Shown here piece by piece: positions 1-21,982 of a DNA stretch of 64,000 nucleotides; positions within the stretch are counted from its first letter, which is position 1, and each line of letters opens with the position of its first letter. Origin of the DNA: an uncultured Gemmatimonadales bacterium (GTDB taxonomy: Bacteria; Gemmatimonadota; Gemmatimonadetes; Gemmatimonadales; GWC2-71-9). The position numbers and the translations under genes were made by a program. The notes beneath the pieces are model-generated. The model ran no database searches, was not told the DNA's origin, and saw only the letters and a list, made by a program, of their open reading frames with translations. The stretch is taken from the NCBI GenBank assembly GCA_963825055.1, contig CAWGSK010000013.1, forward strand, positions 128,001-192,000, read 5' to 3'.

Positions 1-3000
1 AATCCAAAAATGGCCCTGCCCCTTATGATTGTCCTGTACACAACGTTCTCTGTCCATTCTTTATACTCATCTTCACCACGTGTAAGCCTGTTGTAATATG
101 CCGATAGGATTATCCGTTCGCCCGGTGAGAAAATGTAAGGCTCTGGGTCCGAAGCATTCGCCTTCTCTTGTTCCTCCCGTTCTTGCCTACGTTCGGCTTT
201 ATGTTCAGCCCAAGCATCTAGCGCGGCTTCATTGAGATCCGCCCATGTCGTGAGGGCGCCGCCTAGTCTTTCCCCCAACGACCCTTGTCCTGACCCTCCA
301 ATGGTGCCGTCACGATTCATGCAGAACAAATTCCCGCAGTTTGCTGTCCACCCTGATTCATAGTCCATATTCATCCCAGAGGGATCCCTCGCATCCAACA
401 CCTGTCCGCCCACGTAAGAGTAGACGTTGGCACCACCACCATACCCGATCGGATCCTCCTGCACAAACCGGAGCATGTCGGGGCTGTAGTACCGGGCCCG
501 ATGGAAATACCAGCCCGTCTCCGCGTCGTATTCCCGCCCGGTCCACCGGTACCGGAGCCCCGGATCCGTCCCGGACTGGGTTTCCTGGTTTCCATATGGG
601 TCGTAGCTGACGGCGTACTTCCAGGTCCCGTTCCGCTGAGTCAGAGTCCGGACGCTCCCCAGTTTGTCCTGGGCGGTGTAGTAGTGGTTCCCGGCGGCAT
701 CCCGGAGCGCCAGCAGGTCATCGGTGCCCAGGCCCCAGGTGTAGCGCCACCCGATGGTCGAGCCCGCCGAGTCCGTCTCGAAGGCCACGTGGTCTCCGTG
801 GTACACGTACCGCGTATACCCCACCGTCCCCCCCGTCGCGGAGCTGTAGACCCGCTTGGCGATGCGGCGGCCGAGGACGTCGTACCCGTATCGGACGATG
901 AGGGTACCGTTCCGGCGCACACTCCGGAGCCGGTTCAGGGCGTCATAATCGTAGGTTCTGACCTCCACCACGGACGAGTCCTTCGTCAGATTCCCGTCGC
1001 GGTCGTAGGTGAACCAATGCGTGTAGCCACTTGTTTTCCGTTGCAGAAGCCGAGAGGTCACGGTGTGGTAGAATTCAGTCCCTCCTGGGGTTCTGATATT
1101 GCCATTCTTGTCGAAGGAGAAGGTGAGGCTGTCCACCGGGAAATGGCTGCTGTTCTGGTGTTGTACCCAGCTGATGACCCGGCGCCAGCCGTCATACACC
1201 GTGCTGTCCTGCAGGCTGTCCAGCCCGCTCGCATTGTTCCGGCCGGTCCACAGGTTACTCAGCGCCGGCCCCGGCATGGTATCGGGCCCGGTGGGGTCGG
1301 ACGCGCGCTCGTAGCGCCCGAGGGTGTAGCCGGAGATTGTGGTGTGGCGCTCGTCCAGCTCGCCGGTCAGCGCGTAGCTCAGATTGGTGTGCGCGGCCCC
1401 TGACGGCGAGGCAATGCGCACGACCGCCGGCCGGCCCCGGCCATCGAAGGCATAGGAGACCGTATCCGCCCACGGGGTGAGGAGCGAATCCGCCATGCCG
1501 CGGAGAGTCTCATACTTCGTCGTCCAGGTCCCGAGCGCGTCCGTTACGGTGGCCGGGCGCTCCCAGGTATCGTAGGTGTAGCTCGTAGGCCTTGCGATGC
1601 TGCCGCTCTTGGTCGTATCCGTCTTGAGCCGCCCACGCTGGTCGTAGGTCCAGGCTACCGCCCCAAGGACCTTGCCGATCGAGTCCACCTGACTCGCCCA
1701 CCAGATCCTGGTGACCTGATCCAGGGGACCGGTGTACTTCGTCTTCCGGTCGCCCACGGTGGGAATCGTTGTCAGAGTGTCCCGGTTCCGGGAATCGTAC
1801 CAGGTCTCGATGGTGTAGCCTCGGCGAGTGATGGACTTCTTGAGGTTTCCGGCCTTGTCGTAAACCATTGAATCCTTGACAGCCATGGAGTCGGTCCAGG
1901 GTCTACGGCTCAGGAGGCGGCTCAGCCGATCGTACACGTACATCGTCGCCGTTGTGTCGGTCGTGTGGATCGTGAGACGCAGGGAATCACGCCCCGCGCG
2001 GTCCTTGACGAAACCCACATGCTGCACACGAAGCGTGTCGGTAGTCAGCGGCCATGAAGGTGTGTTACACGGTGCCGTGCAGTCGTCCGTGCGCAGACTC
2101 ATGCTGGTGGTCACCTCGTTGGCCGTTGTATAGACCTGTCGGCCCCGGCGCCACTGATACTTGACGGCGGTGCCGGTGGACTTGACCGGAATCTTGCTGT
2201 CATTGGTGGTGTCACGGCCCATGATGTCATACAGGACCTGGCTGACCACTTGGCCGGACTCATCGATGGTCTGCCAGGGGTTTCCCCAGGTCGTCTCGTA
2301 GGTCATGTGGCGGGATTTCGACGACCCCGGAAGACGGACGGAGTCCACCTGGCCGTTCGACTTGTACCAGGTCAGCGTGACGTTGCCCTGCGCATCCTTT
2401 GCATAGATCAGGTTTCCGTTGGCGTCGTAGTCCAGGCTGTCGACCTTGTTCCGATTGTCGATCCGCTTCACGACCCGGTGGTTGCCGTCATAGACCAGGC
2501 TGTCGCCGCGCAGGGTATCCCCCGCGGCCCGGATGATGTACGTCTTCACCACCCGCTTGAATGCATCGTAGGCAGCGTACGTTCGGCTGGAGTCCGCCGT
2601 CTTGCCCTGCGACCAGAGGAGAAAGCCGTCCGCGTCGTACTGGGCCTCGGAAAGTGTGCCGAGGGCATCCCAGCTCTTGAGCGCCTGGGCCCACCGGTTG
2701 ATGAGCGAGCGGGTCCAGTTGCTCTTCGGGTCCTCCATCTCCACGTACACACTGTCCAGCGACCGCAAGGAGCCCCATCCCTGCCGCTCATACGGCATAT
2801 AAGTCACCGTAGGGTTGAGCCAGGTGCCGGTCTCGTCCTGCACCCGTGGCGCCTTGGCCTGGATCGGCCGGCGCTTGAAGGTGGAGTCATAGACAATGGT
2901 CGTGGTGTCCGTGATCACCCCGATCCGGCGGGTCAGGACGACCGTGCCGGTGCCCGGGTAGGTCTGGTACGTGTACTTCGTGGTGAAGGGCCTGGCGGGC

Positions 3001-4676
3001 AGCGAGCTCAATGAATCGTAGGTGAGCTGGTAGGTGGTACCGTTGACCACGACCTTCGTCGCACGGGCGGCCCCGCTGGTCAGCGCGGTGATCGTGGAGA
3101 TCTTACCATTGCCGTCGTAGGCGAACGTAATCGTCTTGTCCTTCGGGTCCTTGAGGACGCTGACCGCGCCGCTGCCGGTATAGGTCACGGTGTCCCGGTT
3201 CCCATTGGCGTCCACCGTGGCAGCCAAGCGGCCTTGGGAGTCGTACTTGACCTTCGCCGTGGACCCACGCGGTCGGAGTTCCCAGCCGTTCGCCGTCTTG
3301 ACGAGGGTGGTAAAGCTGCCGGGGGGCGAGAGATAGAGGCTGTCGCCGTTGCCCCGGAAGATCGTCGCCGTTCCTCCAGACCCCACGAGGATTCTGTCGT
3401 TACCCGCCGCCACGAGCTGGCTGACTCCGCTGGGCCACCAGCCGGAGCCGTACGCCGTGGTCCGGCGGTCTACTAGGACAATCTCCACCGAATCCGCCGA
3501 GATCTTGGTGGTGGCACCCGAGGTCACCCGGGCCTCGACCGTGAGCCACTTCCCGGTGGGACTGCTGAACGTGCTCCCCGAAAAGTCGCCCTGGAGCGTG
3601 GCCCGGCACTTCTTGACCGCCCCGGTCGCACAGGTCGGCGAACTCAGGGTGACCGAATCGAGTCCGGTCACGCCATCCTTCAGAATGAGCTTGATCTGAC
3701 TTGGCGTCCCTGCCGGCCAGGGCAGCTCGAGGTCGACGTTGACCAGCGCGCGCGGGTAGGACGTCCGGGTGGAATAGACGAGGCCGGTGCCCCGGGCACT
3801 GCCCATCGAGAAATACGGAATCGTGCTGAAGCCGGTCGTGACCTCGGCGCCCACTACCCCCACCCCGGGCCCGAAGGACGACGCAAAGCCTCCGTTCACG
3901 GCCTCGAGCGGCATGCCGGTGAAGCCCAGCACGGGAGTCGAATCGTTGACGAGGACCGCCCAGCGCGTGGTTGTCCCGCACGCGTTCTGGGTCGTACAGG
4001 ACCGGAGGCTCAGCAGGCCGGAGTCGCCGACGGCGAGACGATGGATCGAGTCCAGCTCCCACTCGACCACGCCGCGATTCTGCCGGGCGAGCGACGTCAC
4101 CGTATCGCCCTTCCAGGTGAGTACGGTCTTGGTGCTATCGATCGTCGCCCCTGACACCGGTACGATTGTCGCCAGAAAGAGAGGCTGCCGGGTGTGGACG
4201 ACAGCTCGACTGCCGGAGGTCACCACGGGGGAGAGGATGGAGATCGTCGGTGGCGGCAGGAGCGAGACCGAATAGTACCCGGTATCCGTGGCCGCCCCGG
4301 ACGCGATCAGGGACAGTGATCCGGCAAACACGCCGGCACTGAAGGTTACCTCCACGTCGGTGCCGCTTCCGCCTGCCAGATAGACCGAGCTCTGATCCAC
4401 TGAGCATGTCGAGAACTTGAGCGCCTTGCAGGTCAGGGTGAACGTCGTGGCCGCCGTGCCCGTGTTGTTGACCACGAATTCCGCCACGTTTCCGCTCGAG
4501 TTCTGGGCCACGGACATCCCGGTTCCGTCCGGTGTCACGGAGACACCCCAGCACGCCGGGCAGAGCGGGCCAGACCCCCCGCCGGGCAGTCCCGGGTTCT
4601 GGGCGGCGAGGGGAGCGGCGAGCAGGACCAGCAGAAGAACCGGAAGCAGGCGGACGAGGGCACGGCGGGACGCCAT
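1..4676 (-). CDS. RHS/YD-repeat protein with Sec signal peptide, Ig-like N-terminus and variable C-terminal domain (3' end beyond window)
   Basis: Frame open from ATG 4676 to the window edge, with no stop, so missing from the ORF track. Signal-like MASRRALVRLLPVLLLVLLAAPLAAQ, many YD repeats (YDSQGRL, YDANGNL, YDKAGNL), RHS core end RYRWTGREYDAETGWYFHRARYYSPDMLRFVQEDPIGYGGGANVYSYVGG..RDPSG, then a lower-GC tail. Confidence 0.93.
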   Translation of the reverse strand, partial: MASRRALVRLLPVLLLVLLAAPLAAQNPGLPGGGSGPLCPACWGVSVTPDGTGMSVAQNSSGNVAEFVVNNTGTAATTFTLTCKALKFSTCSVDQSSVYLAGGSGTDVEVTFSAGVFAGSLSLIASGAATDTGYYSVSLLPPPTISILSPVVTSGSRAVVHTRQPLFLATIVPVSGATIDSTKTVLTWKGDTVTSLARQNRGVVEWELDSIHRLAVGDSGLLSLRSCTTQNACGTTTRWAVLVNDSTPVLGFTGMPLEAVNGGFASSFGPGVGVVGAEVTTGFSTIPYFSMGSARGTGLVYSTRTSYPRALVNVDLELPWPAGTPSQIKLILKDGVTGLDSVTLSSPTCATGAVKKCRATLQGDFSGSTFSSPTGKWLTVEARVTSGATTKISADSVEIVLVDRRTTAYGSGWWPSGVSQLVAAGNDRILVGSGGTATIFRGNGDSLYLSPPGSFTTLVKTANGWELRPRGSTAKVKYDSQGRLAATVDANGNRDTVTYTGSGAVSVLKDPKDKTITFAYDGNGKISTITALTSGAARATKVVVNGTTYQLTYDSLSSLPARPFTTKYTYQTYPGTGTVVLTRRIGVITDTTTIVYDSTFKRRPIQAKAPRVQDETGTWLNPTVTYMPYERQGWGSLRSLDSVYVEMEDPKSNWTRSLINRWAQALKSWDALGTLSEAQYDADGFLLWSQGKTADSSRTYAAYDAFKRVVKTYIIRAAGDTLRGDSLVYDGNHRVVKRIDNRNKVDSLDYDANGNLIYAKDAQGNVTLTWYKSNGQVDSVRLPGSSKSRHMTYETTWGNPWQTIDESGQVVSQVLYDIMGRDTTNDSKIPVKSTGTAVKYQWRRGRQVYTTANEVTTSMSLRTDDCTAPCNTPSWPLTTDTLRVQHVGFVKDRAGRDSLRLTIHTTDTTATMYVYDRLSRLLSRRPWTDSMAVKDSMVYDKAGNLKKSITRRGYTIETWYDSRNRDTLTTIPTVGDRKTKYTGPLDQVTRIWWASQVDSIGKVLGAVAWTYDQRGRLKTDTTKSGSIARPTSYTYDTWERPATVTDALGTWTTKYETLRGMADSLLTPWADTVSYAFDGRGRPAVVRIASPSGAAHTNLSYALTGELDERHTTISGYTLGRYERASDPTGPDTMPGPALSNLWTGRNNASGLDSLQDSTVYDGWRRVISWVQHQNSSHFPVDSLTFSFDKNGNIRTPGGTEFYHTVTSRLLQRKTSGYTHWFTYDRDGNLTKDSSVVEVRTYDYDALNRLRSVRRNGTLIVRYGYDVLGRRIAKRVYSSATGGTVGYTRYVYHGDHVAFETDSAGSTIGWRYTWGLGTDDLLALRDAAGNHYYTAQDKLGSVRTLTQRNGTWKYAVSYDPYGNQETQSGTDPGLRYRWTGREYDAETGWYFHRARYYSPDMLRFVQEDPIGYGGGANVYSYVGGQVLDARDPSGMNMDYESGWTANCGNLFCMNRDGTIGGSGQGSLGERLGGALTTWADLNEAALDAWAEHKAERRQEREEQEKANASDPEPYIFSPGERIILSAYYNRLTRGEDEYKEWTENVVYRTIIRGRAIFG

Positions 4677-4710
4677 GAGAGGACTCCGGCAGAAGGATGC
4701 CCTCTCCCCA

Positions 4711-4727
4711 TGGCATATGCCGTACCA
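4711..4727 (-). promoter_or_regulatory. Putative sigma54 (-24/-12) promoter of RHS gene 1
   Basis: TGGTACGGCATATGC: GG-N10-GC, close to the TGGCACG-N4-TTGC consensus, about 37 nt upstream of the ATG. Confidence 0.7.
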
Positions 4728-4788
4728 GGTGGGCTTGGAGGCTCAGGCGTTGACTCGCAAGGACTTACGAGGGCGGGATGCTACCTGC

Positions 4789-4839
4789 GTCTCACTGAGG
4801 CGTGAGACAGTCTCACGGAGTCTCAGGGTTCAGTGAGAC
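4789..4839. promoter_or_regulatory. Palindromic upstream activator-like sites (two GTCTCA-N8-TGAGAC)
   Basis: GTCTCAC-TGAGGC-GTGAGAC at 4789-4808 and GTCTCA-GGGTTCAG-TGAGAC at 4820-4839; near-identical inverted copy at 11521-11548. Confidence 0.65.
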
Positions 4840-4841
4840 TG

Positions 4842-4976: not shown

Positions 4977-5145
4977 TCGAAGCTAATGAACAATTGCCAA
5001 GTCAGGATTGTGCGGTCTTAGGCCATATATCGGCCGGATTCGTGCCTGTAGGGGAACACGGGACGTGAGCAACGCGCCCCGACCTCGCTTCGGTTAATAA
5101 ACTCCGGGACGCCGATGACGCCGCCCGCGGTATTCACACGGCCTG

Positions 5146-5353
5146 ATGTCCGACCAGCCGAAGGATCCTGTCCGGATCACCGTCAAGCCGCTCGGCACGA
5201 TCGTCGTGCACGGCGAGGTCCGGGTGGAGGATCGGGAAGGGAACGAGATCCCGTTGCCGGTCGCGAAGAATCCGGGGATGGTGAAGTTCTGTGGGTGCGG
5301 GCGGAGCAGGGAGAAGCCGTTTCTGCGACGGGAGCCACAAGTGCAGCGAGTAG
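5146..5353 (+). CDS. CDGSH iron-sulfur domain protein (one extra T near 5321)
   Basis: FCGCGRSREKPF, then in the shifted frame TGC GAC GGG AGC CAC = CDGSH; TAG at 5351-5353. Confidence 0.85.
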
Positions 5354-6488: not shown

Positions 6489-9400
6489 TCAGTCCTTCTT
6501 TTGATCTTCATCTGGCTTCGTTTCATCAGGTTTGGGCGGTTTGGCGGGCTCCTCAAACTCAGGTGGATTATCGGAGCCTTTAACGCGATCGGGAACACCT
6601 CCCCCAATCCACCCAGCACCCGCGATAAGAATCCGCCTCAGCCAGTCTCCAGCACTCGCCATCTCAGCAACAAGGCCGTCAGCAACGCGTGTCACACTGC
6701 TAATGTCTCTCGCCGCTCCCACCATTCCACCAACGACCACTCCCGCCGTGCCCCCTACGAGAGCGCCACCACCACCCCCTGCCACGGTTCCCACACCCGG
6801 CACGACGAATGTGCCTCCCGTGGCGCCTATAACAGCTCCACCCAATCCACCTGCGAGTAGGCCCGCTCCAGCCATTGTAAACGTACACGGTATACCATCC
6901 TTCTCAATCGGGCACAGTCCAAAGGGGTCCGTGTTCCTCACCGGGTCGTTACCATTAAACTGGAACAGATTCAGCCCACCTCCGACTCCGATTGGATCCT
7001 CCTGCGTCCATCTGCCCGTCCGGGCATCATAGGCCCGATTCCGGAACAGAGACACGTCCGGAATGTCAACATTGCTGAACCGGTCCGGATCAAAGCTGCT
7101 GGCACCCTTCGTGGCCCCCGCGAAGCGCCACTGAGAAGGCAGAGTACTTCCACCTTCCTCGTCCGCGTTCAGACTGCCGTCACCGTGGCCAGCCGAGAGT
7201 TGACGACCCTGTCCATCCGTCACGACGTACACGGGCTGACCCTGGACGACGTCGCCGGTGCCCCGCAGCACCGCCAGCATCGGGTCATCCAGGCCGGGGC
7301 CGTGGAAGAACCGCCACCGGTTGTTCCCTCCGTAATAGCCAGCCGTCGGATTCGCCCCGTCGAACGTCAGGAACAGTCCTGTCTCGTCACAGGGCAGAAA
7401 CATCTGACCATCAGCGTCGTACCGGCAACCGTCCTCGTTGTCCGTCAGCACGACGCCGCCGTTGTACGACTGGCCTTTCATCATGCCCGTCATGCGCCCG
7501 AGGGCGTCGTAGTAGTACGCTCTCACCAGAGGGATATTCTGCGCAATGAGGGGGCTCGGCAACTCGAATCGACGCGCGCCGGATCCCGTATAGGTATGCG
7601 TAATCGTCGGGCCGGACCAGAGCGAGTCATGATCGCTGGTCAGGCGGTTGGTACCGCTGCCCATGACGAAGACGGTCCAGAGGGTGTGGTTAGCATCCAG
7701 CTTGAAGGCCAGGTTGCCGGCGTCGTCGTAGCGCATCGAATCGACCTGACCGCCCTGCAGCTGCTGGCTGGTCAACATGCCCAGCTGATTGTACCGGTTG
7801 ACCTCGGAGCCGTGACTGCCGGCACACGGGGTATTGCTGTAGGTCGTGGTGCCGGGGCACACGGCTGACGATTGCTGGATGCGGCCAATGAGATCGACCT
7901 TCTCCCGCTCCCAGGTAAACCGGTGTCGATTATCTGTGGCGGAGCTGGTGTTGGTCGCCTGCGCCCACCGCAGCTCGCCTGCTCTCCCATACCGCAATTC
8001 CACGGCCAGGTTGCTTTCGGGATAGCCGACCCGCTTGCGCCTTCCCAGCGTGTCCCAGTCGAAGGCGAACGTTTTCTGGACGTTTCCCGTTCCCGACTTG
8101 TACCAGACGGCCATTGTCGCCAGATCGCCGGCGGCGTCGTAGCCGTAGACCATGGTATCCTTCCCCGCGTAGACCACCTTGCTGATGGCGCCGGTTTCGT
8201 TGTAGGAGTAGGCGATGGAGTCGGAAAACACGGTGTCCTGGAGGATGGTCACCTTCTTGCGTAGTGAGCCGTCCGCATAGTAGCCGCGCCGGATAAGGCT
8301 GTTCCTGTTCCTGGTTTCGATCAGATTGCCGAAACCATCGTAGGTGTACTGAATCGTATCCGCCGGTGAGGTGTAACTACCGAAAGCATCTGAATTCACT
8401 CTGGGCGGGAGAATCGTCTTAGTACGCCGGCCCATCAGGTCGTAGGTGTGGCTCACCGTCAGCGAGTCGCGACTGGCCATCGAGGTCACGAGGCCTGCCT
8501 GGTCCAGGGTAGCCGTCTGGGCACGATTGAATTCGTCCTTCTCGGTGATCGTCAGCCCCCGTGCATCCCGGACGTAGCGGCGCTTGACCCCTCTGGGATC
8601 AGACAGGGAGTCCAGCCCGGTCGCGCCCTGGTAATAATAGGTCTTCAAGGCGTAGTCGCCGTACTTGTGAGGGGTATAGGGGCTGGTCAGATCGGTGCAT
8701 TGGTTATAGCTCGACTGGCAACCGATCATCCGGTTGGATGAATGCGGGTAGCCACTGGGCCAGCTCAGGAAAGCAATGGTGTATCGTCGATGCAGAGTGA
8801 CTCGATTCAGGGCGTCATAGTCCCACTCTTCGCGGTTGGCAAGCGGGTCGTACGCAGCGGTGACCCTGCCGTACAAATCCCGGACATAGGTATTGATCCC
8901 TCCCTGCGGGAGACTGTCGACCTTCAGGTTGCCCATGGCGTCGTAGTAGAAGCGGTGGGCAAGATCCTGATTTACGGTTGTGTTTGTGCTCGCCTTCCAG
9001 GTGGGGACCGCCGAGTTCCGTTACGGTCTTCAACTGGCCCTTGGGGTTCCATGTGGTTTCGCTGTAGACGTAGTCTGTTCGGTAGGCGCGTCCATCGATG
9101 GAGTGATCGAGCAGGCCCATGTTGTTGTACACGTATGTAGTTGCGTTGTAAGAGGCGTCCTGGACCGAAATCGGCAAGAAGACCAGCCCTCGGTGATACT
9201 CGTTCCTGAGTTGCTGTAGGTGTACTGCCTGAGCCGGCTGGGCGACTGAGGCTGTCGTCCAAGCCCGGGCTGAGCACTTGAGTTAACCGGAGCCGGCCAT
9301 AGTCGTCGTACTCCGCCAAATCCACGAGGCCCGTGGCCGTGTGACCATGGTGACCAGGGCAGGGACCGATACTGGCCGCGTTCCACGATAGTCACATTGT

Positions 9401-11364
9401 TATATGCGTCCTTAATGCGCGTCGGCGCCCCCCAGTGGTCCACCCAGAAGGTGGCATCATAGTTTCCGGCACGCGGTCCCTGGATCTTGGTATATCGCGC
9501 TGACGTGTCCGGCGGGTTGATCGCTGTGCCAGCAAAGAGCCCCGCCTGATCCCAAGGAGTGACGTACGTCGACGCGGTGCTCGTCCCGGTCGGACCGAAT
9601 GGAACGTCAAACTTCTCAACACGCAGGCCCTTGAAGTAGTAATAGGTCGATGTGTAGCGCCCCGGTTGGTGCGGGTCGTGAGTCGTCCGTTGGAGTCGTA
9701 GCCGTACCCCGTGGTCACGTTATCGGGGTCAGGCTCACCAGACGCCCGCTGGTTACCGTGGCATCAAGATCCGGGAGGCGGGATCGATGATCTTGTCCAG
9801 CTTGCCGCTGACATAGGTCAGGGCATAGGACGCTCCTGCCCGGAGGGACGGCGATAGCCGTGAGCAACGCGCCGGACCACGTGAACGTCGTCGACTGTCC
9901 AGCCCGGTTCGTGGTCTGCACGTGCTTGCCGGACGAGTTGTATGTGACAACGACCCCGTACTTGAGAGTCCGTTCGTACTGACTGCTCACCAGCCGGATG
10001 GTGTCCCGATACGCGCCAAGGGGAGCCACCCAGGTTGTCGAGTTCACCTGGGAGTAGAGCTTTGACGACCCGTCGCCACCGATCCAGAGGATACCATTGC
10101 CGCCAGCCGGCTGATTCAGGACCAGCTGTTGCGACCCGAACGAGGCTCCATCCCGTTCCGTAGGCGCTAGCCGCTCGATTGACAACGACCAGTTGGCCCG
10201 AGACGATGTCACTGTATGAACTTGCCGAATACTGATTGGTCACCTCAAGGAGGAAGGGATAGACTCCCCAGGAATCCGTCGAAGCGTCATACGTCAGGGT
10301 GATGCGCGGCTTGAACTGCCCGTGGACCAGGCATACGAACCCGCAACCTTTGTAACCCAGGCACCTCCTATCTGAACCTTCAGGTTCGCCAGGAGCGTGC
10401 TGGGAACTGCTTGCCCCGTCGGTTGGGTTACGGTGGCGGTCACGACTGGCTTTGGGATCGCCTGCGCCGACGAGTAGAGCAGTGTCAGGGAGCGATCTCT
10501 TCCCAGGGTCCGGTATGACGGCAATCCCTGCGTCGCAACCAGGTCTCCACAAACGAGTGCCGCTTCGCCCGCACCTGCAACGAGGCACTGGGATCTGTCC
10601 CAGTTGTCGTCGGAATGATTGTAGAGCGCTATGTCGGGGGCCCCTTCGTCGGCAGCGGTGATATTGTATGAGCCCTGGTCGCTGACTGGACCTGTACCGC
10701 TCGCATTGAGGCGCAGGAGTCCACTGGAGGAGCCGACGCTGAATGTGACGCTGACCACCCCGTCATCCGCCGCAGAGAGGTATATGGATCCCGGAGATAC
10801 GGACACGCAGGTCACGCCGAACGCCAGGCACGAGAACGTGTACGTATTTGCATAGGTGCCCGTATTGAGGACATAGAAATTCAAGGTGTGGTTTCCCGAG
10901 TTCTTGGCGTAGGTAACGGGACTGTTGTCCGGCGTGACCCTCACGCCGTATGAACCGCCCCCACCGCCGCCGCCTACTGCGGCCATACCGGACTGTTTGC
11001 TGGCGCCAGTGCCGTCAACAAGATATTGCGCCCGTTTTTCCGTCCTGCCGGCTGTTGCAACGAGCTCCAGCGCTCCAGTGCCTTCCCCAGCCAGGTACTT
11101 CACGCTAATCGTCGTGGCCTCATCTGCGGCCAGGCGCACTCGCGCGCTCGAAGCCAGGGAGCATGACACACCTCCGTAGCCCTCACAGGACAGGTCCACC
11201 CACTGGGACCTTCCGCTGATATTCATGAGGCGGAACTGGACCACGGAATCGGTGACAGCCAGCCTCGCCGGTCCGCTGCCGGGGCGATCAGTCCTCCCGG
11301 AGCTGGCCACCTGGGCCCAGCCGCGGCTCGGGACAAAGAGGATGAGGAGGAGCGGAAACAGCAT
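6489..11364 (-). pseudogene. RHS/YD-repeat protein 2 with signal peptide, two Ig-like domains and Gly-zipper C-terminus; several frameshifts between about 8940 and 10310 (decay or assembly error)
   Basis: Consecutive fragments 11364-10294, 10588-9818, 10212-9715, 9718-8815 and 8936-6489; core RNRAYDARTGRWTQEDPIGVGGGLNLFQFNGNDPVRNTDPFGL. Confidence 0.85.
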
Positions 11365-11416
11365 GCGGACACGAGCGGGACATGACGGACTCCGGGATGA
11401 GAGTAAGCCCCAGTCA

Positions 11417-11433
11417 TTGCATGCAGCGGGCCG
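11417..11433 (-). promoter_or_regulatory. Putative sigma54 promoter of RHS gene 2
   Basis: CGGCCCGCTGCATGCAA: GG-N10-GC; weaker match than the RHS1 site. Confidence 0.5.
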
Positions 11434-11448
11434 TGGCCACTAAACCCG

Positions 11449-12562: not shown

Positions 12563-14019
12563 GCAGAATCCGGTCGGACGGCTTCAGGAAAGGACGCTCC
12601 AATGCGCGGCGCGGTCACCGCGTCTGCATCTTCATCGGTCCTGAGTATCCTCGGCGTGATAAAGAGGTACAGCTCGGTCTCGCTGCTCCGCCGGCTGGCG
12701 CTCCCGAACAACCCTCCGATGATCGGGATGCCGGACAGGATCGGAATGCCGGACTGGTTCCGGTCACGCTGCTCATCCCTGAGCCCGCCGATCACGATGG
12801 TCTGGCTGTCCCGGACCAGAAGCTGTGTCGTGGCCTCGCGGGTGGAGATGATCGGCGCGTCGAACTGGGTCTCGGAGGTCGCGGCGTTGATTTCCTGCTG
12901 GAGGGCCAGCGAGACGTAGCCGTCCTGGTTGATGGTGGGCCGGACGGTCAGCTTGGTCCCGACGTCCTTGTACTGGACGACCTGGTCCCGGGAGGGCGTG
13001 TCGGTTGGAAGGGACCGACTCACCTGCACGAACGGCCGCTGGGATCCGACCAGCAGTCGGGCTTCGGTGTTGTTGGAGGCAAGAATCACCGGCCGGCTGA
13101 TGATCTGGACCTCCCCCCGGCTCTGCGCCATCCGGAGCGTCGCGTCAATGTCGGCCTTGCCGATACTCATGAGGCGGATGACCAGGTCGCCCAGACCCCC
13201 CCCCGTGAGCCGGGCATCCACGGTGCCGCCATCCAGTGACTGTTTCGGCAGGAAGAGGTCGGCGCCGAGGGAGAAATTCCGGTCCCGGCGCGCTTCCACA
13301 ATGAGAATCTCGATCAGGACCTGGAGCGGCCGGACATCGAGATGATTCACCGCCTCGTCAATGACCTGGTAGTCCTCCTCGCCGGCACGGATGAGGAGTG
13401 AGTTCGTGAGTTCATCGGGCACGACGGTGACCGCTCCGCGCAGCATCGAAACCTCGCTCCCCACGACGGCCTGAGGGGTACTCCCGCCTTGCGGGGCCAC
13501 CTGGTTCCGCCGCAGTTCGTCGGCCAGGGTTCCGTTGGAGAGCCCACCCGAGCCCGCGAACGCCCCGCTGCCGCCGAAGAGCAGGTTGACGGTGGCGGCC
13601 ACGTCCGCCGCCCGGGCATGCTTGAGACGGATGACGAAGAGCCTGGGCGGCCCCGCAGCCGATGCTCCGGCGGCTGCCGTTGCCGGCACGGCGATGGGTG
13701 CGATCCGGTAGAACGCCGAGTCGTCTTCAAAGGAGAGCCCGTTCGCTTCCACCACACCGCGCAGCAATACCGCCACCTCTTCCCGGCTCACGGGACCGGG
13801 CGGCTCCAGGGTCACCCGGACCTGGGGGAGATTTGCGGTCACCACGGTCTTCGGCAGATAGGGCGACAGCGCGCTGATGGCCGCCCGCAACTCGGTATCC
13901 ACCAGCCGGATGACCACGCTGTCTCCGGCCGGAACCACGGCCGGTCCCTGCTGGCCCTGGACCTGGCTGGCCAGAACCGCCAGCGTGATCACGATGAGAA
14001 CAGCGTTCCGGAATCTCAT
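12559..14019 (-). CDS. gspD: Type II secretion secretin (short GspD-like)
   Basis: Signal peptide, IRLKHARAADVA, PDELTNSLLIR, QVLIEILIVE, IVIGGL, SGIPILSGIPIIGGLF, TELYLFITPRIL. Confidence 0.9.
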   Translation of the reverse strand: MRFRNAVLIVITLAVLASQVQGQQGPAVVPAGDSVVIRLVDTELRAAISALSPYLPKTVVTANLPQVRVTLEPPGPVSREEVAVLLRGVVEANGLSFEDDSAFYRIAPIAVPATAAAGASAAGPPRLFVIRLKHARAADVAATVNLLFGGSGAFAGSGGLSNGTLADELRRNQVAPQGGSTPQAVVGSEVSMLRGAVTVVPDELTNSLLIRAGEEDYQVIDEAVNHLDVRPLQVLIEILIVEARRDRNFSLGADLFLPKQSLDGGTVDARLTGGGLGDLVIRLMSIGKADIDATLRMAQSRGEVQIISRPVILASNNTEARLLVGSQRPFVQVSRSLPTDTPSRDQVVQYKDVGTKLTVRPTINQDGYVSLALQQEINAATSETQFDAPIISTREATTQLLVRDSQTIVIGGLRDEQRDRNQSGIPILSGIPIIGGLFGSASRRSSETELYLFITPRILRTDEDADAVTAPRIGASFPEAVRPDSA

Positions 14020-14495
14020 GGCCATGGCGTCCTCACGGGCAGTGACCACGTCGTGTCCGGGCCCTGCAGGGTTACCGAAGAGGGGGTGATTCGTGCGATC
14101 CTGATGCCACCCAGGGTATCGCCGGAATGTGCCAGGACGGCGCCCGCGCTCCCCGGCACGCCTTCAATGACGGCACTCGGCCGGTGCCCCCAGACGATCC
14201 CCGTGACCAAGAGCACCGGAAGTTCCTTCGGAGCGGTCGCGGGCTCGTCCGTCTGCTGAACAACCGAAAACGCCCTGGGAGCCGGCGCACGGTTCTGCCG
14301 GAACAGATCGTGCGCGACGACGTACGCCGCCAGAGAATCCAGTGGGGCAGATTCGACAGCGACGACCGGGTATTCGGGCTCAGAGACCGCCGGGAGGTCG
14401 GCATGGACAGGTCGGAGCAGGAAGACCCCGACCGGCAGTGCCGCGAGGCCAAGCAGCCCGAGAACTCGACGGCCGATCGTGCGAACGGATGCCAT
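14016..14495 (-). CDS. GspC/PilP-like T2SS accessory protein
   Basis: Single TM, DLFRQNR, LLVTGIVWG..AVIE..GDTLGGIRIARITPSSVTL; stop overlaps the gspD start. Confidence 0.6.
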   Translation of the reverse strand: MASVRTIGRRVLGLLGLAALPVGVFLLRPVHADLPAVSEPEYPVVAVESAPLDSLAAYVVAHDLFRQNRAPAPRAFSVVQQTDEPATAPKELPVLLVTGIVWGHRPSAVIEGVPGSAGAVLAHSGDTLGGIRIARITPSSVTLQGPDTTWSLPVRTPWP

Positions 14496-14496
14496 C

Positions 14497-15105
14497 TCAG
14501 ATCCCGTCCGCAGGGCTCGACCGGGCGGCTCCCGGAATCTGCCGCTCCAGGTACCAGCCGAGGACAATGAAATCCGCATTCAGAAGCTCTGACCCCTCGT
14601 CCGCCTGGGCGGCGGCGACGTGCAGGCTATCCAGACGGAGTACGGGGCCCGCGGCCAGGTGCTGAAGCGTGGACACAATGCCGCCGAGATCTCCTTCGAG
14701 CGTCACCCTGACGCCGGCTCGGCGGAGCCACCCCGCACGCGCGGAATCCTGAACAGGCTTGATGGCAGAGATCCGGACACTGCCGGTTCCGGCACTCAGG
14801 GTCACCCTGCTTGTCAGGTCATCGGCCGCATCTGTGCTCGTCGTACCGGAGAGCAGGTCCGGCGCAAGCCCCACGACCGCGTCCTGAAGTTTTGTACCAC
14901 CACGCACCAGCCGCTGGCCATACTCCACCTCTCCCCGGTCCCGGGAGAGTTCGAACGCCAGCTCGTGCAGTCGGGCTTCCGCCGTCGAAACGACGTTCAA
15001 CAGCGTCGGGAGGCCCCTGAGGGCCACCCAGGCGGCGAGCACCACGGCCGCGCCCGCCAGTACCGCGCGACGGTTGCGCCCCGGTGGCAGGTGCAGGCCG
15101 CTCAT
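14497..15105 (-). CDS. gspM: GspM/PilO-like T2SS protein
   Basis: N-terminal TM, coiled coil, VRVTLEGDLGGIVSTLQHL; operon position. Confidence 0.65.
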   Translation of the reverse strand: MSGLHLPPGRNRRAVLAGAAVVLAAWVALRGLPTLLNVVSTAEARLHELAFELSRDRGEVEYGQRLVRGGTKLQDAVVGLAPDLLSGTTSTDAADDLTSRVTLSAGTGSVRISAIKPVQDSARAGWLRRAGVRVTLEGDLGGIVSTLQHLAAGPVLRLDSLHVAAAQADEGSELLNADFIVLGWYLERQIPGAARSSPADGI

Positions 15106-16079
15106 CGAACAACCTTGAACGAGAGTTCGAAAGGCACCGGCCCCGGCACCGCGCCGTCCTGCGGGAGAAGCTTCATGACGATATCCGAGAACAGCGAATC
15201 ACTTCGCATCGCCGCCTGGACCGCCCCGGGCCGGATCGTCTCACCGCGAATGGTCACGGACTGCCCGGCGAGATCGAGGCTCGTCGCCCAGGTAGACCCG
15301 GGGAGTGCCTGAGTGACCGCTGCGAGCGTCTGAACGACCATCGCACGATCACGCCTGTCCTTCCCGACGGCAACAACCATCGCCCGGGCCATTCCCGCTT
15401 CCCGTCGAGCAGCGAGAATGGCCTCAACCGGCGCCCGCAGCGCCTCCCGTTCCGTAATCAGGGACCGTCTGATGATGGCTACGCGTCCGGCGTAGAGACC
15501 TCCCAGGACAAGCCATGGGACCACTGCTGCCATGACCAGCCTTCGGTGGGACATGGCGCTCCGGGCCGTCTCGCGATTCAGGGCAAACGAAAGGCCGCGA
15601 TATTGGGGCGGGCTCTCCGGCCGAAGGACTGCCAGTACGCAACCGGCACGGCGGACGGACTCGACCAGGCACTCGGCCAGCGGGGCTTCTACGGCGGCCG
15701 ACAGGACGGTCTGCTCGCTACCGGTAGACTTCACGCGGGCACAGCTCGTGAGGAGCGGAGTTCCGTTCTGCCGAAAAAAGCGGGAGGCCTGCAGCTGAAC
15801 CATTCGCTGGAGCCGGGCCGGGCTTACCGGAGGCACGTCGCTCAGCACGCGGATCTGAATGAAGGCCCGATCCAGTCGGATTTCGACCTGACGAGGCCGC
15901 TTCGGACAAGCCGGAGATGCCAGAAGAGCCTCCAGCGCACCCGGCAGGTTCTCACGTGCTCCGAAATCAACCTCGGCCTCCCAGGAATGGCCGGTTTTCC
16001 GGCGGTGAAGCCATGGGCTCCCCGGGAGAGTTGCCCGTACCCGGCCCTCGAATACTTGCACCTGGATCCGGCGGGTCAT
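15102..16079 (-). CDS. GspL/PilN-like T2SS protein
   Basis: Cytoplasmic domain, TM, LAAVTQALPGSTWATSLDLAGQSVTIRG; ATGA overlaps on both sides. Confidence 0.65.
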   Translation of the reverse strand: MTRRIQVQVFEGRVRATLPGSPWLHRRKTGHSWEAEVDFGARENLPGALEALLASPACPKRPRQVEIRLDRAFIQIRVLSDVPPVSPARLQRMVQLQASRFFRQNGTPLLTSCARVKSTGSEQTVLSAAVEAPLAECLVESVRRAGCVLAVLRPESPPQYRGLSFALNRETARSAMSHRRLVMAAVVPWLVLGGLYAGRVAIIRRSLITEREALRAPVEAILAARREAGMARAMVVAVGKDRRDRAMVVQTLAAVTQALPGSTWATSLDLAGQSVTIRGETIRPGAVQAAMRSDSLFSDIVMKLLPQDGAVPGPVPFELSFKVVR

Positions 16080-16927
16080 GGGCACTGTCTCCGCACCACC
16101 GCCAGCCGCTCATGGAGAGGGACAAGGGTGATCAGGCACTGCGAGCGAATGGCGTAGCCCGACACACCCCCCGTCACCTCCGCCTGGATGATCCGGGACT
16201 GGAAGATCAGCCTGCGACTGAGTTCCGCATACTGCGTTGCGATGGTCCGCTGGTTCCGGGGAGCCAGTTGGGACATCAGTTCGTCAAGATTCCTGATCGG
16301 ACGGCCTCTCTGCCGGCGGTGCAGGAGAAGGGCCGTGGCGGCAGGCGGGAGGCCTGAGGTCGCCTCCAGGGCCCCCGCAGAAGCGGAATTCACGTTCAGG
16401 ACGGTGGCATCCACCGTGACTTTCGGGAGGATCGTGGCCAGGACGGTGTCGTCGAACCCGCGGACAAGACCCAGTTCGTCGGGAGATGCGAGGGGGCCAT
16501 TGCGGGGGCCGACGCGCCCCCTGGCCCGGTACCAGGCCAATTCTGCGCCCGCCGCTCGAGCCGAGTCATCCGGATCTCTCCAGTCCATCAAGGCCGCAGC
16601 CATCGTATCTGACCCGAACAGTTTTCGGAGGCTGGCGGAATCGGCGGTGTTGATATTGACCCGTCCCTCCGGATCCCATACGGACACATGGCACCATGTC
16701 CCATGCCCCAGCTGGACGGTATCCATCTCCACCATCGTAGAGTCCGTATACCGGGAATTCAGGATGGCAATGCAGGCCTCTCGGGCCCAGCCCGCCCGTT
16801 GGAGAAGGATTCGATTTCGGCCGGCTCCAATATCGGTCCTGGCCATTGCCAGGATTACGGCCGCTGCACTGCCGAGCGCGACGATGAGCCAGAGCACCGC
16901 AAGAAGCGCGAACCCGCGCCGGTTCAT
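16076..16927 (-). CDS. gspK: Minor pseudopilin GspK
   Basis: Prepilin leader MNRRG|FALLAVLWLIVAL, GRVNINTA, ALMDWRDPDD, DELGLVRGF, LNVNSAS. Confidence 0.88.
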   Translation of the reverse strand: MNRRGFALLAVLWLIVALGSAAAVILAMARTDIGAGRNRILLQRAGWAREACIAILNSRYTDSTMVEMDTVQLGHGTWCHVSVWDPEGRVNINTADSASLRKLFGSDTMAAALMDWRDPDDSARAAGAELAWYRARGRVGPRNGPLASPDELGLVRGFDDTVLATILPKVTVDATVLNVNSASAGALEATSGLPPAATALLLHRRQRGRPIRNLDELMSQLAPRNQRTIATQYAELSRRLIFQSRIIQAEVTGGVSGYAIRSQCLITLVPLHERLAVVRRQCP

Positions 16928-16965
16928 CCACGGCCCCCGATCAGCAGAAGCGTCGTGTCCACTTC
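16924..16965 (-). pseudogene. Probable 3' remnant of the gene preceding gspK (GspJ-like)
   Basis: EVDTTLLLIGGRG*, whose TGA overlaps the gspK ATG like the other operon junctions. Confidence 0.4.
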
Positions 16966-16969
16966 CAGG

Positions 16970-17119
16970 GTAACCCTCACAGAACTCGCCAGCTTCTGCC
17001 AAGAGCCGTAGGATGGCACCCTTGATTGGCCCTGGTGACCCGGGACGTTGCACGGATGGACATCCCTCGGTGAGGCACCGGAGGACGAAGGCGCGGGTGG
17101 CAATCGAGAGCTTGTTCAT
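16970..17119 (-). pseudogene. N-terminal fragment of an IS1-like DDE transposase
   Basis: MNKLSIATRAFVLRCLTEG/MSIRATSRVT/GAILRLLAEAGEFCEGY read across frameshifts; HTH pattern recalled from IS1-family transposases; ends before any DDE domain. Confidence 0.6.
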
Positions 17120-17173
17120 ATCGGTTGTATGCAGTACAATTGACACTCGGTCGCCTGTCAACGGGGGCATACA

Positions 17174-17444: not shown

Positions 17445-19143
17445 CGTGATGGACTCACCACAGTCGAGCTTGGGGAAGCTCCTGCGGGGGCCATCTGCTC
17501 CAGGTGCCCCCTTACCAGCGCGACTACCGGTGGACAATCGATAAGGTCTCGCAGCTCTTCGATGACCTCGACGCGGCCTTCAACCGAAATGATGATCGGT
17601 ACTTCCTCGGGCTCATGGTCTTCATGCGGACGGAGACGCCGACTGGTCTAGAGGTTCTGGACGGGCAGCAGCGGCTCACGACGGCCTTCTTGTTCCTCGC
17701 CGCTTGCCGCAATTGGCTTGACCAGTCGGATGCCTTCAAAGCCGACGCGGAGAAGATCAACGTCGAGTTCATGGGCGAGCGCCGATTCGGCGAGAAGATC
17801 GTCTCTCCCCGTATCGTCCTCAATTCGGCCAACAATCAGGCGTTCAAGTCGTTTGTCGTTGAACGCCGGCCCCTGAAAGACGTTGAGCGAGAACTCGGGA
17901 AGATGCGAAAGCATGACCGGAGTCGCCGACTCCTTGAAGCCGCCCTCTACTGCCATAAGCGGATTGCAGAAATGGCCGAGAAGCGGGGCCGGGACGAGTG
18001 CGCCGCCCGACTCTCTCAACTCATCAACTTTCTAAACGAGCGCGCCCCTGTTGTCAGGCTAACCGTACCAGATGAGGGAACCGCGTTCACAATCTTCGAG
18101 ACGTTGAACGATCGCGGGATGGATCTCTCCCCGCTTGACCTGGTCAAGAACCACCTGTTCCGCTGCACCAACAAGGGGAGCGTTGCGCAGCGAACCTTCA
18201 AACCCGCTGGGGCCAGATGATGGGCGATCTTTAGCACAGCGCCCCAGATCAGTTCTTGAAAACTTTCTGGACTTCACGGCACGGCCGCGTGCAGACCCAT
18301 GCCCTGTTCAATGCGTTCACAAAGAGCTACAACAACCATGCCCAATGCGTAGACGTGTCGGTTGACCTCTTGTCCGCGTCGGAATATTATGCGGCGATGT
18401 CGCACCCGGACGATTCAACGTGGTCGTCCTATGGGGATGGCGCGGGGAAGTAATTCGATCCCTGGACATTTTTGGGGCCAAACAGACTCACCCAATCGTG
18501 ATGTCTGCACTCGAACGGTTTACTGAGTCCGAGATGGAACGCCTCCTGCGCCTTCTGGAGGTCGTGATCGTCCGCTACCAGTTCGTCGGTGGCGGGCGGA
18601 CTGGTGCGCTCGAAATCGGAATGCGCCAAGGTCGCACAAGGGATATGGGACCGGAAGGTGAAGGATGCGGCCGCCGCGTTCGCGCAACTCAAGGCCGTCT
18701 ACCCCAGCGATGAACAGTTCAAGGACCGACTCAGGGACTTCCGCAAAGCAACATCGACCAAGACGGTCTACATCTTCCACGCGCTGGAACGAGAGGCAGA
18801 GCGGCAGGCGACTGACAAGCCTGTCGCGGGTAGCAAGCTGGACACTGACGTGACAGTCGAACACATCCTGCCACAGAGGCCCGGGGAGGAGTGGCCCCCT
18901 GAACTGGCAGACGACGAAGACGACCTGACCAGCTGGATTGGAAACCTCTGCCTGCTCCGAAAGGGAGCTAACAGGAAGCTTGGGAGGGCAGCTTTTGCGG
19001 AGAAGCGGGCGCTCTATGCGGAGAGTGGTCTCCGACTAACCCGCGAAATCGCCAGTGAATATCAGGTATGGGACAAGGACGCGATTATTCGGCGGCAGAA
19101 TTATCTGGCTGAGCTGGGAGTGCTGGCTTGGCGGTTTCAGTAG
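17434..19143 (+). pseudogene. GmrSD-family (DUF262 + DUF1524 HNH) modification-dependent restriction protein, multiple frameshifts
   Basis: PPYQRDY, LDGQQRLTT, IFETLNDRG, EHILPQ, IGNLCLL..N spread over several frames. Confidence 0.85.
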
Positions 19144-19276
19144 CCCGTGGGGTCTGATGCTCCGGTGGGGTGGTGCCGGACTTGCCGAACAGGCGCTGTG
19201 CGAGGACGAAAGCGGCCCGGTTGGGGTCTGATGAGGGCCGGGGCCGTTTGGTCTCGTCCTTTTCTTCTGGCTTCAT
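19085..19276 (-). CDS. Small hypothetical protein near the IS-like end
   Basis: RBS-like AGGAGG before the ATG; KRPRPSSDPNRAAF; 3' end overlaps the GmrSD gene. Confidence 0.35.
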   Translation of the reverse strand: MKPEEKDETKRPRPSSDPNRAAFVLAQRLFGKSGTTPPEHQTPRATETAKPALPAQPDNSAAE

Positions 19277-20588: not shown

Positions 20589-21732
20589 CTAGCGGCGGAT
20601 GGTCTTCAGCGGAATCGCGACCGAACCTGGCGATCGGTCGGCGAGACGGGCGACCGCCGTGCCAAGGTCGCCTTCGCTCGTGATGCTGTACCGAGTGAAG
20701 ATTTTGCGCGTCTTGTGCCCCATGAGCTGCATGGCCCAGTGCTCCGGCACTCCCGCGGCGGTCAGATTTCGTGCAGCTGTATGGCGGAAGGAGTGAAAGG
20801 TTCGATCACGATCGAGCCGCACACCGGCGCGTTTGCACGCTCCGATCCACGCTTCCCGGAAGTCCCCTATTGGCCTCCCGTCGCGATGGAAAACATGCTG
20901 CGGAATCGAACCCACCCTCCGTGCGACATCGTCAGCGTAGGTTCTCTGAGCCAGAATTGCTTTGGCGAGCGGCAGGAGTTCTCCAAAAGGGAAGACTCGT
21001 CCGTCATCTGTCTTGCTAGTCGTACCTGCTGTGGTCGAGGTCGGCGCGATGCGCATCACGCCCCCTTCGAGGTCAACCTGGGACCACTTGAGGTCTAGGA
21101 GCTCGCTCTTACGCCACCCCGTGTAATAGGCAGCGACTACAAGATTCTTGAGCGGAGGAGCGATTTCCGCCACATAAATCTGCAGCTCCTCGTATGTGAA
21201 CCACCCTGTCCGGGCGTTCCGCACCGGGATGTGTGGGAAGCTGGGACAAGAGGGAAGAAGCTCTTGCTTTACGGCGAGGTTGAAGGCCCTCCGGAGGACA
21301 GCAAGCTCGTACCGAACGGTCGGCGGGCTTCGCATCCTTACGCCGCTCGACCGCATAGATTCCCAGGAGCCGGGGCTTGATGTCAATTGCACGCATGCCT
21401 CCGAAGCGCTCGGCAAGGTTGCCAAAGGCAATGCTGACGCGCCCCGCACTGCGACGCCCTGCAAGTCGGTAGCTGGTCAGCAGGATTTCTCTAAGATCGT
21501 CCAGCACGACTCGACCCGCCTCTGCCCCCACAAACCTGCCCACTGCATGCTCCCCGAGGCGCTGCTTAAGCAGCTTCACTGCATCAGACCGGTTCCTGGA
21601 TTTCGAGGACTCCCGGTACCGTGTCCCGTTCACCCAATAGCAAATCCACCAGGTCTGCAGTTTCCGACCAGGGCGCTGTGGATCATTGGGCTGGTAGATA
21701 GATCCCGTGCCGCGGGCTCGGCCCTTCGCCAT
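20589..21732 (-). CDS. Tyrosine recombinase / phage-type integrase (frameshift near 21322)
   Basis: Arm-binding RGTGSIYQ..WWICYWVNGTRYRESS; catalytic TGWRKSEL, HSFRH, LMGH, RY; AGGAGG RBS. Confidence 0.92.
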
Positions 21733-21899
21733 GTCTCGCCTCCTCCTGATAGGGGACGAGGCCTATGGCGGCAAAATCCACGCCGTGGCCATCAGCTCGC
21801 AGCCTGCGCCGGGAACCGCCACAGTTCCGCCACAGTTCCGGGGCGAGGCGGTGGCGGACCGGAAGTAACCAGGCGTGCTAAGTCGTTGGGATAAAAGAA

Positions 21900-21982
21900 T
21901 GCCCGAGGCGAGAGTCGAACTCGCATGGGGTTGCCCCCGGTGGATTTTGAGTCCACTGCGTCTGCCATTCCGCCACTCGGGC
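21900..21982 (-). tRNA. tRNA-Leu (CAA)
   Basis: GCCCGAG/CTCGGGC acceptor stem, GGCGGAATGGCAGACGC D-arm, GTGGA-CTCAAAA-TCCAC anticodon arm, long variable arm, GTTCGAC T-loop; CCA not encoded. Confidence 0.97.

Follow-up and report, generated by a model that had tools for sequence, protein, structure and literature searches.

A type II secretion operon linked to sigma-54 activators and polymorphic RHS genes in Gemmatimonadota, with a truncated copy in a tRNA-Leu island

How RHS toxins that carry a signal peptide cross the outer membrane of diderm bacteria is the question raised by a 64,000-nucleotide stretch of DNA (the window; G000:C13:128001-192000) from an uncultured Gemmatimonadales bacterium whose assembly is 87% complete and 6% contaminated. 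At its left end, genes gspK, L, M, C and D of a type II secretion system (T2SS), a sigma-54 activator, the RHS gene RHS1, a gene for a protein with an HExxH motif and a second RHS gene, RHS2, follow one another on the minus strand beside an integrase and a tRNA-Leu. All of these genes, which a preliminary description had listed from the sequence alone, were confirmed (Table 1). That description took them for a mobile module with a dedicated secretin machinery, its own activator and polymorphic RHS cargo.

By its gene content this truncated copy is a member of a module conserved in Gemmatimonadota. We give a probability of roughly 0.7 to the reading that the intact module is a dedicated T2SS for polymorphic RHS toxins under a two-step sigma-54 cascade. 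The RHS toxins of intact copies are likely antibacterial and likely leave the cell with no type VI secretion system (T6SS) involved.

Gene order and distribution across Gemmatimonadota

A search with the GspD of the window returned 79 loci. The relatives are nearly all from Gemmatimonadota, the nearest from an uncultured Gemmatimonadales. Clustering the genes of these loci gave 13 large families in the order gspE-G-F-H-I-J-K-L-M-C-D, activator, RHS and a downstream gene, the names gspE to gspJ being assigned through pilin motifs and ATPase similarity within their own clusters. An RHS gene lies somewhere in the locus in 55 of the 60 genome loci with at least 3 kb downstream; it is co-oriented and within 5 kb in 42 of the 60, and the activator is the next gene after gspD in 52. 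Where at least 8.5 kb was available upstream, 43 of 48 loci have the full set of gspE, F, G, J, K, L, M and C. Because the profiles used on this first set were built from those same loci, we fetched 80 held-out metagenome loci and scored them with the earlier profiles. Among the 43 with 3 kb downstream, 40 have an RHS gene, co-oriented in 38, and 42 have the activator; the operon is full in all 14 loci with enough upstream flank. The co-occurrence of gsp and RHS genes, for which the preliminary description had proposed to score the neighbourhoods of GspD homologues, is thus far beyond chance (55/60 and 40/43 loci). Control loci were of two kinds. In Gemmatimonadota T2SS loci of the D-E type, in which gspE stands behind gspD, an activator is adjacent in none of seven and RHS nearby in one of seven, and no RHS gene lies within about 8 kb of four PilQ-like loci. 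Both kinds of secretin separate from those of the module in a quick tree (support 90 for the D-E type and 100 for PilQ).

To place the module among genomes, we surveyed 120 Gemmatimonadota genomes, each at least 90% complete. A secretin is encoded in 117, an RHS core in 38 and the T6SS sheath protein VipB in eight. GspD matched at E<1e-95 in 18 genomes, one of which (G001) proved to be of the D-E type, leaving 17 module genomes. All 17 encode an RHS core, compared with 21 of the other 103; in 13 of the 17 it is on the same contig within about 15 kb, and in three the contig ends first. VipB is encoded in one of the 17, and neither PAAR nor VipB was found in the assembly of the window itself. 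A profile of the N-terminal half of RHS2 matched at E<=1e-40 in 15 of the 17 module genomes and in eight of the 103 others, a comparison that is partly circular. The activator search of the same sample used E<=1e-50, an uninformative cut-off that returned the query alone.

Some loci depart from the common pattern. A second gspD-activator unit follows the RHS gene in L001:18981-21257 and L192:9968, which suggests duplication or recombination of the D-activator-RHS end. Two module secretins, those of L029 and L042, come from contigs that carry the labels Gammaproteobacteria and Polyangiaceae but group within the Gemmatimonadota rows, through transfer or mis-binning. In L167, L168 and L171 a run of genes with hydrophobic N-termini, not RHS, comes after gspD and the activator and may be an alternative cargo. 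A different RHS class also exists in the phylum: L124 (G099:C1) encodes a 2533-aa RHS protein with no signal peptide, its N-terminus resembling, as we take it, SpvB/TcdB.

Predicted RHS cargo and control

Both RHS proteins carry the hallmarks of an RHS core (PF05593, TIGR03696 and TIGR01643). RHS2 is made up of a signal peptide, one or more Ig-like domains, a plug-like domain, a YD shell and a 205-aa tip, and retains the DPxG motif with its first P missing. RHS1 has a hydrophobic N-terminus, the canonical PxxxxDPxG and a 142-aa tip that is glycine-rich and amphipathic. Domain searches for PAAR, VgrG and Tc domains gave no match in either protein, in agreement with the first reading of the sequence; with PAAR and VipB also missing from the assembly, RHS1 and RHS2 fall outside the T6SS Rhs proteins. 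The Sec-type signal peptides predicted earlier were supported by a crude test with controls, which passed 63 of 75 full-length RHS proteins, none of 79 GspE, none of 81 GspF and 30 of 152 activators; when a single start was picked automatically, 31 of 52 RHS proteins passed. Export by the Tat route was rejected, its consensus occurring in 0 of 52 RHS N-termini. In many RHS N-termini, and in several other exported proteins of the window, the predicted cleavage often leaves a glutamine at +1 (A-x-A then Q). A model of RHS2 residues 27-560 has an Ig-like sandwich, a second domain of low confidence, a plug-like domain and then the first part of the YD shell; neither a propeller nor PAAR was seen in it. 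The best fold match of this half was Teneurin-2, at a low TM-score, with Ig adhesion proteins also close, and the N-terminus of RHS2 had no usable Atlas match.

The cargo is polymorphic, as had been proposed, with 87 distinct tips in 69 clusters. Pfam matches were found in 10 of the 86 tips of relatives (NucA/NucB, Ntox21, Tox-REase-7, a deaminase, DUF4329, M23 twice, M15, eCIS_core and a weak DUF2076), and known toxin or hydrolase families account for nine of the 86; the tips of RHS1 and RHS2 had no Pfam match. In a simple scan, a small open reading frame (ORF) lies close behind 79 of the 87 tips. Orphan tip-immunity arrays, with 5, 11 and 7 cassettes in the stretches covered, stand beside complete modules (L097-L100 in G010:C2 and L093-L094 in G036:C2). 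In G010, which has two modules, the array is found behind gspD or ahead of gspE.

The HExxH protein may be the immunity partner of the RHS1 tip. Modelled together, the two scored 0.68, against 0.00 for the best of three controls; the mark set for this score was reached by 116 of 157 solved pairs and by two of 215 mismatched pairs. The runs agree in at least 37% of contacts, with a partner pLDDT of at least 48, and the predicted contact is made with residues 90-111 of the tip, away from the HExxH motif. Homologues of the HExxH protein follow RHS genes in other loci. One homologue is close, and the Atlas gave unnamed clusters only. The co-model is support for an immunity pair, not proof of one. 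To the left of the window, a 215-aa ORF with no Pfam match comes after RHS2 (G000:C13:127088-127735) and is a candidate for the immunity gene of the RHS2 tip.

The activator has an AAA+ domain with GAFTGA and a Fis-type helix-turn-helix (HTH; helix S-R-A-T). It has no receiver or sensor domain, and its homologues are about 300-340 aa long. By this architecture we class it as a sensor-less sigma-54 enhancer-binding protein with predicted promoters and upstream repeats. Matching predicted sigma-54 promoters stand ahead of both RHS genes (Table 1), consistent with the early suggestion that the cargo has its own activator, and rpoN is present in the assembly. Besides the RHS2 repeat cluster the assembly has one other, and of the two only that of RHS2 comes with a strong -24/-12 site. 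The motif GG-CAC-N6-TGC was refined from the sigma-54 consensus in 38 activator-RHS spacers, its sites being known as sequence motifs. At p<=0.065 it was found in 29 of the 38 (leave-one-out) and in 29 of 33 held-out spacers. An IHF-like site lies at most 60 nt upstream in 18 of the 38 and 18 of the 33, against 2% in shuffles. Counting duplicates, 28 of 60 operon-first cases also have the -24/-12 motif ahead of gspE.

The activators fall into separate clades (96% each), one with the 21 rows that precede gspE and one with the 70 rows that follow gspD, and both stand apart from six host activators. Within a locus, the repeats ahead of gspE are unlike those ahead of RHS. An enhancer shared by the gspE and RHS promoters was tried and rejected, own-locus similarity ranking only 2-26 of 29 in nine loci. 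The HTH helix goes with particular repeats. S-x-A pairs with TGAGA in eight of nine first-set cases and four of four held-out ones, and H-x-[AS]-T with YGCGA in seven of eight and 11 of 11. Two further pairs were read from the held-out set itself: G-R-T with GTGAAC (3/3, plus three rows with a misread helix label) and A/R-R-S with GGAAT (4/4). The AAA+ tree has 11 changes of the helix and enhancer labels, yet no more than two independent pairs are on supported branches, and the phylogeny-corrected test is therefore not significant.

From this arrangement we infer how an intact module may work. The upstream activator, which belongs to a separate clade and is found in part of the loci, would fire the sigma-54 promoter ahead of gspE. 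The downstream activator, the last gene of the operon, would bind the repeats that lie right behind its own coding sequence and, together with IHF, activate the RHS promoter. As the activator is last in the operon and the RHS promoter follows it, synthesis of the cargo would wait for that of the machine. Sec would carry the RHS precursor across the inner membrane, the shell would fold around the tip in the periplasm, and the short secretin would be the way out. Immunity would come from the gene behind each tip. T2SSs move folded proteins of more than 100 kDa. We hold a more ambitious version only tentatively, at somewhat less than even odds. In it a stand-alone delivery system is formed by a T2SS lineage whose secretin is two domains short and which is devoted to RHS cocoons. 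A two-step sigma-54 cascade runs it, the recognition helix and the adjacent enhancer repeats change in concert, this polymorphic specificity insulates the modules, and the whole is the phylum's main T6SS-independent weapon. If true, a single activator would turn on RHS genes at scattered sites that have its repeat in common, as with RHS1 and RHS2, and the pairs would form a natural code for enhancer-binding-protein specificity.

Several findings weigh against the reading of dedicated RHS export. The foremost is that the same RHS family occurs in the eight module-less genomes (8/103, E<=1e-40). Of the earlier claim of a dedicated machinery, the linkage of a gsp operon with RHS stood, but the RHS family is also present in genomes without this T2SS. 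In the five RHS-bearing genomes tested, four of these eight (G118, G042, G091 and G086) and G056, neither gspG nor gspK was found at full length. G118, 97% complete in three contigs, has 42 RHS cores, with signal-peptide RHS genes accompanied by an activator, repeats and -24/-12 sites. In G102 (1/17) the operon is present but RHS genes lie elsewhere only, and four of the 30 loci that have long flanks on either side contain the secretin but no RHS. The first-set profiles derive from the loci they scored, and kin among the loci are not independent. The comparison of GspD phylogenies suggested earlier held in setting the D-E type and PilQ apart, but the monophyly of the module secretins has support 0 in the quick tree. 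The signal-peptide test is home-made, with a false-positive rate of 20% on activators, and RHS1 as assembled has an N-terminus without a charged n-region. A Pfam family is missing for 76 of the 86 tips. Against the pairing of helix and repeat, one G-R-T activator of the first set carries another repeat.

These points bear most on the alternative that the activator and the RHS gene are the functional unit. Export would then go via Sec and PilQ, vesicles or lysis, with the gsp operon as a fellow traveller that secretes mainly other proteins or is dispensable. We consider this unlikely, though it would account for genomes in which the only secretin is PilQ-like and signal-peptide RHS genes of this family nevertheless occur, some of them with an activator, an enhancer and a -24/-12 site. 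In the window, moreover, RHS2 is intact while the T2SS is truncated, and the assembly has PilB/PilT/PilC-like genes. On the other side, overlapping stop and start codons tie the activator to the end of the gsp operon, the 79 loci showed no further cargo family that recurs, and all four PilQ loci are without RHS. The cases without a T2SS may be remnants or assembly gaps, many of the G118 cores lying near contig ends.

Alternatively, the T2SS would export RHS proteins that stay on the surface and serve mainly as Ig-domain adhesins or in kin recognition, or act on contact only, and not as antibacterial toxins set free. The Ig-like repeats vary in number, the proteins are about 1400-2800 aa long, the modelled N-terminal half is nearest Teneurin-2 and Ig adhesion proteins (at low TM-scores), and a known family is missing for most tips, all of which would suit such a role. 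However, nuclease, deaminase and wall-peptidase tips, orphan arrays and small genes tightly coupled downstream mark polymorphic toxins, and no lipobox or anchor was noted among the printed RHS N-termini, making this alternative quite improbable. We favor dedicated export of RHS toxins by the intact module.

The module-less genome G118 (L120-L122 and L139) encodes one PilQ-like secretin; neither gspG nor the T6SS sheath was found in it, many of its RHS cores are near contig ends, and its RHS genes have two different enhancer types.

The truncated copy and its island

Table 1. Features of the truncated module and its island, in window coordinates
Feature	Position	Strand	Remarks
RHS2	1..4676, final 246 nt past left edge	(-)	intact, 1640 aa; TIGR03696
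RHS2 -24/-12 site	4712..4728	(-)	score 14.6, p 0.01 against shuffles
RHS2 IHF-like site (YAA-N4-TTG)	4757..4767	(-)	
RHS2 predicted enhancer	4790..4841	.	five TGAGAC/GTCTCA repeats
HExxH protein, 215 aa	5864..6511	(-)	predicted RHS1-tip immunity; start overlaps RHS1 3' end
RHS1	6489..11364	(-)	frameshifted several times, from about 10300 to 9013
RHS1 -24/-12 site	11418..11434	(-)	score 10.2, p 0.04
RHS1 IHF-like site	11449..11459	(-)	
RHS1 predicted enhancer	11497..11550	.	four TGAGA/TCTCA repeats, directly behind the HTH-coding end of the activator
sigma-54 activator	11449..12562	(-)	PF00158 and HTH_8; one frameshift near 11900; start overlaps gspD stop
gspD	12559..14049	(-)	PF00263 and PF03958; short secretin; sole secretin of the assembly
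gspC-like gene	14016..14495	(-)	no library match; module GspC profile E 5e-33
gspM	14497..15105	(-)	NF040576
gspL	15102..16085	(-)	weak PilN match; matched by module GspL profile
gspK, minor pseudopilin	16076..16927	(-)	NF037980; start 16927
gspJ remnant	16924..16965	(-)	final 13 codons and stop; marks deletion of gspE-G-F-H-I and most of gspJ
short degraded ORF	16966..17121	(-)	at the deletion junction
gmrSD-type restriction gene	17504..19143	(+)	broken into pieces; passenger
tyrosine integrase	20589..21732	(-)	PF00589; one frameshift near 21322
att core, 58 bp	21899..21956	.	exact second copy at G000:C13:126562-126619
tRNA-Leu(CAA)	21900..21982	(-)	integration target

The loss of gspE-J reported for this copy is supported by the assembly, with gspE-I gone and the last 13 codons of gspJ left, and this gspJ tail is joined straight to unrelated sequence upstream of gspK. 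What remains is tightly packed, as first described: stop and start codons overlap at J/K, K/L, L/M, C/D and D/activator, with a 1-nt gap at M/C. The degraded ORF at the junction presumably resembles the N-terminus of an insertion sequence (IS) transposase, a likeness for which an IS search gave no match and which was not confirmed. GspD matches TIGR02517 below the cut-off, and its best PDB matches are GspD. Its AlphaFold model (mean pLDDT 78) has N0, one KH-like domain and the secretin barrel, and N1/N2 of the canonical N0-N1-N2-N3 series are missing from it.

A search of the assembly (87% complete) found no gspE, F or G of the module type, and the pseudopilins G-H-I-J are gone from the locus save for the gspJ tail. 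The best GspE-profile matches in the assembly reach 516 and 467 bits, compared with 682-851 for module GspE, and score as pilus ATPases. There is no -24/-12 site ahead of gspK (score 0.5). With no ATPase, platform, major pseudopilin or operon promoter left, this copy probably no longer secretes, and its RHS genes are probably silent. That it is still active, its K-L-M-C-D products completed in trans by the ATPase, platform and pilins of the host's type IV pilus or by gspE-J genes that the assembly lacks, is very improbable. In favour of it, the frames of gspK-D and RHS2 are open, several of the frameshifts elsewhere probably stem from assembly errors, rpoN is present and the assembly is incomplete. 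The direct junction of the gspJ tail with unrelated sequence, the missing promoter site of gspK and GspE-profile scores below the module range speak against it.

As assembled, RHS1, the activator, the integrase and the gmrSD gene are frameshifted. Contigs from run X1, several of them identical to the window, differ from it by single bases at 9839, 9013, 18618 and 21322, and at these positions homology or the reading frames shift with the matching sign. X1 also differs by one base at 12192, however, which is inside an open frame. The differences given are among the 12 listed out of 17, the X1 depth is below 5, and X1 may be the source sample. Read support leaves about 10300-11450 uncovered and barely extends over the gspJ junction, so the gspE-J deletion and the activator frameshift rest on the assembly. 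At window 25130-26722, a flotillin-like gene, a core gene which we take to be floA, loses its frame near the end and differs by one base from a sister contig. Together, the X1 differences and this gene indicate that part of the damage, including some of the frameshifts, is probably assembly error.

The island is about 23.4 kb long and lies between two identical 58-bp copies of the 3' end of tRNA-Leu, the left copy at C13:126562-126619, 1.4 kb beyond the left edge of the window. On contig C28 of the same assembly the tRNA is followed directly by the left flank, with 87-94% identity to both flanks, indicating an empty site in a sister strain. The GC content of the island is 0.62, against 0.68. 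With this repeat, a PF00589 integrase and the empty site on C28, the locus is a tRNA-targeting integrative insertion. The idea of a mobile module therefore holds for this copy, but linkage to a tRNA or integrase is not general. A tRNA lies within 10 kb in three of the 79 first-set loci and in none of the 80 metagenome loci, and an integrase-like match in none of 79 and one of 80. Among 39 stretches fetched from the genome sample, five have a tRNA. In a plasmid collection, no full-length GspD relative was present among the 666 records matched.

Sister-strain contigs recur in the assembly (C28 versus C13, and C21, C24-27 and C31-33 versus C9 and C12) and are 85-99% identical to larger contigs. 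Between the two RHS units, window 5087-5343 holds a small gene and a terminator-like stretch, with an 86% identical copy on C20. An octamer tandem repeat that is common in the genome lies between this small gene and the RHS2 enhancer.

Relation to known systems

The preliminary description knew of no experimental account of this arrangement. For the module itself, no description was found in print either. The route, though, has been tested once, with the bacteriocin Bcn-A, and gspG-linked RHS families have been reported. Bcn-A of Xanthomonas perforans is an RHS bacteriocin whose activity is found in the supernatant but no longer in an xpsD mutant (PMC7259588), so a T2SS route for RHS is not new. 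It resembles the module cargo in being an RHS toxin of about 1400 aa with a downstream immunity gene and in depending on xpsD (gspD); as the account of its locus has it, xpsD is outside the five ORFs, and no linked gsp operon or activator is described there (PMC7259588). In the module, by contrast, the RHS gene is linked to an entire gsp operon, with a short secretin of a distinct kind, and to a sigma-54 activator. XRhs F VIII of Xanthomonas and RRhs F II of Ralstonia, likewise RHS toxins beside a T2SS gene, are gspG-linked and predicted T2SS cargo instead of T6SS cargo (bioRxiv 10.1101/2025.05.08.652813). Their linkage is to gspG in a 5 kb/3 kb window, and the main text of that preprint gives no full operon or regulator.

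Among polymorphic toxins, a 'T2SS/Sec-dependent' class was described as using a default export path, and Table 1 of that study lists no neighbourhood signature genes for it ('-'; Zhang et al. 2012, PMC3482391). As described there, the class shares with the module cargo a signal peptide, RHS repeats, a variable C-terminal toxin and an immunity gene; the module differs in having a fixed neighbourhood signature. Bacterial Teneurin-like proteins also have signal peptides, N-terminal adhesion domains, a shell-enclosed polymorphic tip and an immunity gene, and the paper describing them did not identify an obvious machinery for their delivery (PMC13018210, 2026). Here the delivery machinery is linked, and the RHS2 model has no NHL propeller and thus not the FN-plug/NHL/YD superfold. 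Like the T6SS Rhs proteins (PDB 7q97 and 8h8a, Tse5, Tse15 and Tre23), the module RHS proteins have a YD shell and a core ending in DPxG before a variable tip. They differ in having a signal peptide and Ig-like domains and no PAAR/VgrG region, and the T6SS sheath gene is missing in 16 of the 17 module genomes.

On the regulatory side, HrpR/HrpS and PspF are sensor-less sigma-54 activators, made up of AAA+ and HTH, with a secretion-related regulon. In the module, unlike these, two promoters in series appear to be served by separate activator clades, and the recognition helix changes along with the repeat next to it.

In the literature, mostly apart from subscription papers, we found no account of a full gsp operon that is combined with RHS cargo and sensor-less sigma-54 activators, or of such a system in Gemmatimonadota. 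A dedicated, self-regulated, phylum-wide module and its pairing of helix and enhancer thus appear undescribed, and the supplementary synteny (S16 and S18) of bioRxiv 10.1101/2025.05.08.652813 may bear on this novelty.

With a complete linked operon that has its own promoters, the export of signal-peptide RHS toxins becomes directly testable with one operon, one activator and one cargo. The module would also be a means of antagonism in a soil phylum that is abundant but little studied and in which the T6SS is rare (8/120 genomes). It offers a store of 76 tips without a Pfam family, and the sensor-less sigma-54 activators with their matched enhancers could serve as orthogonal switches.

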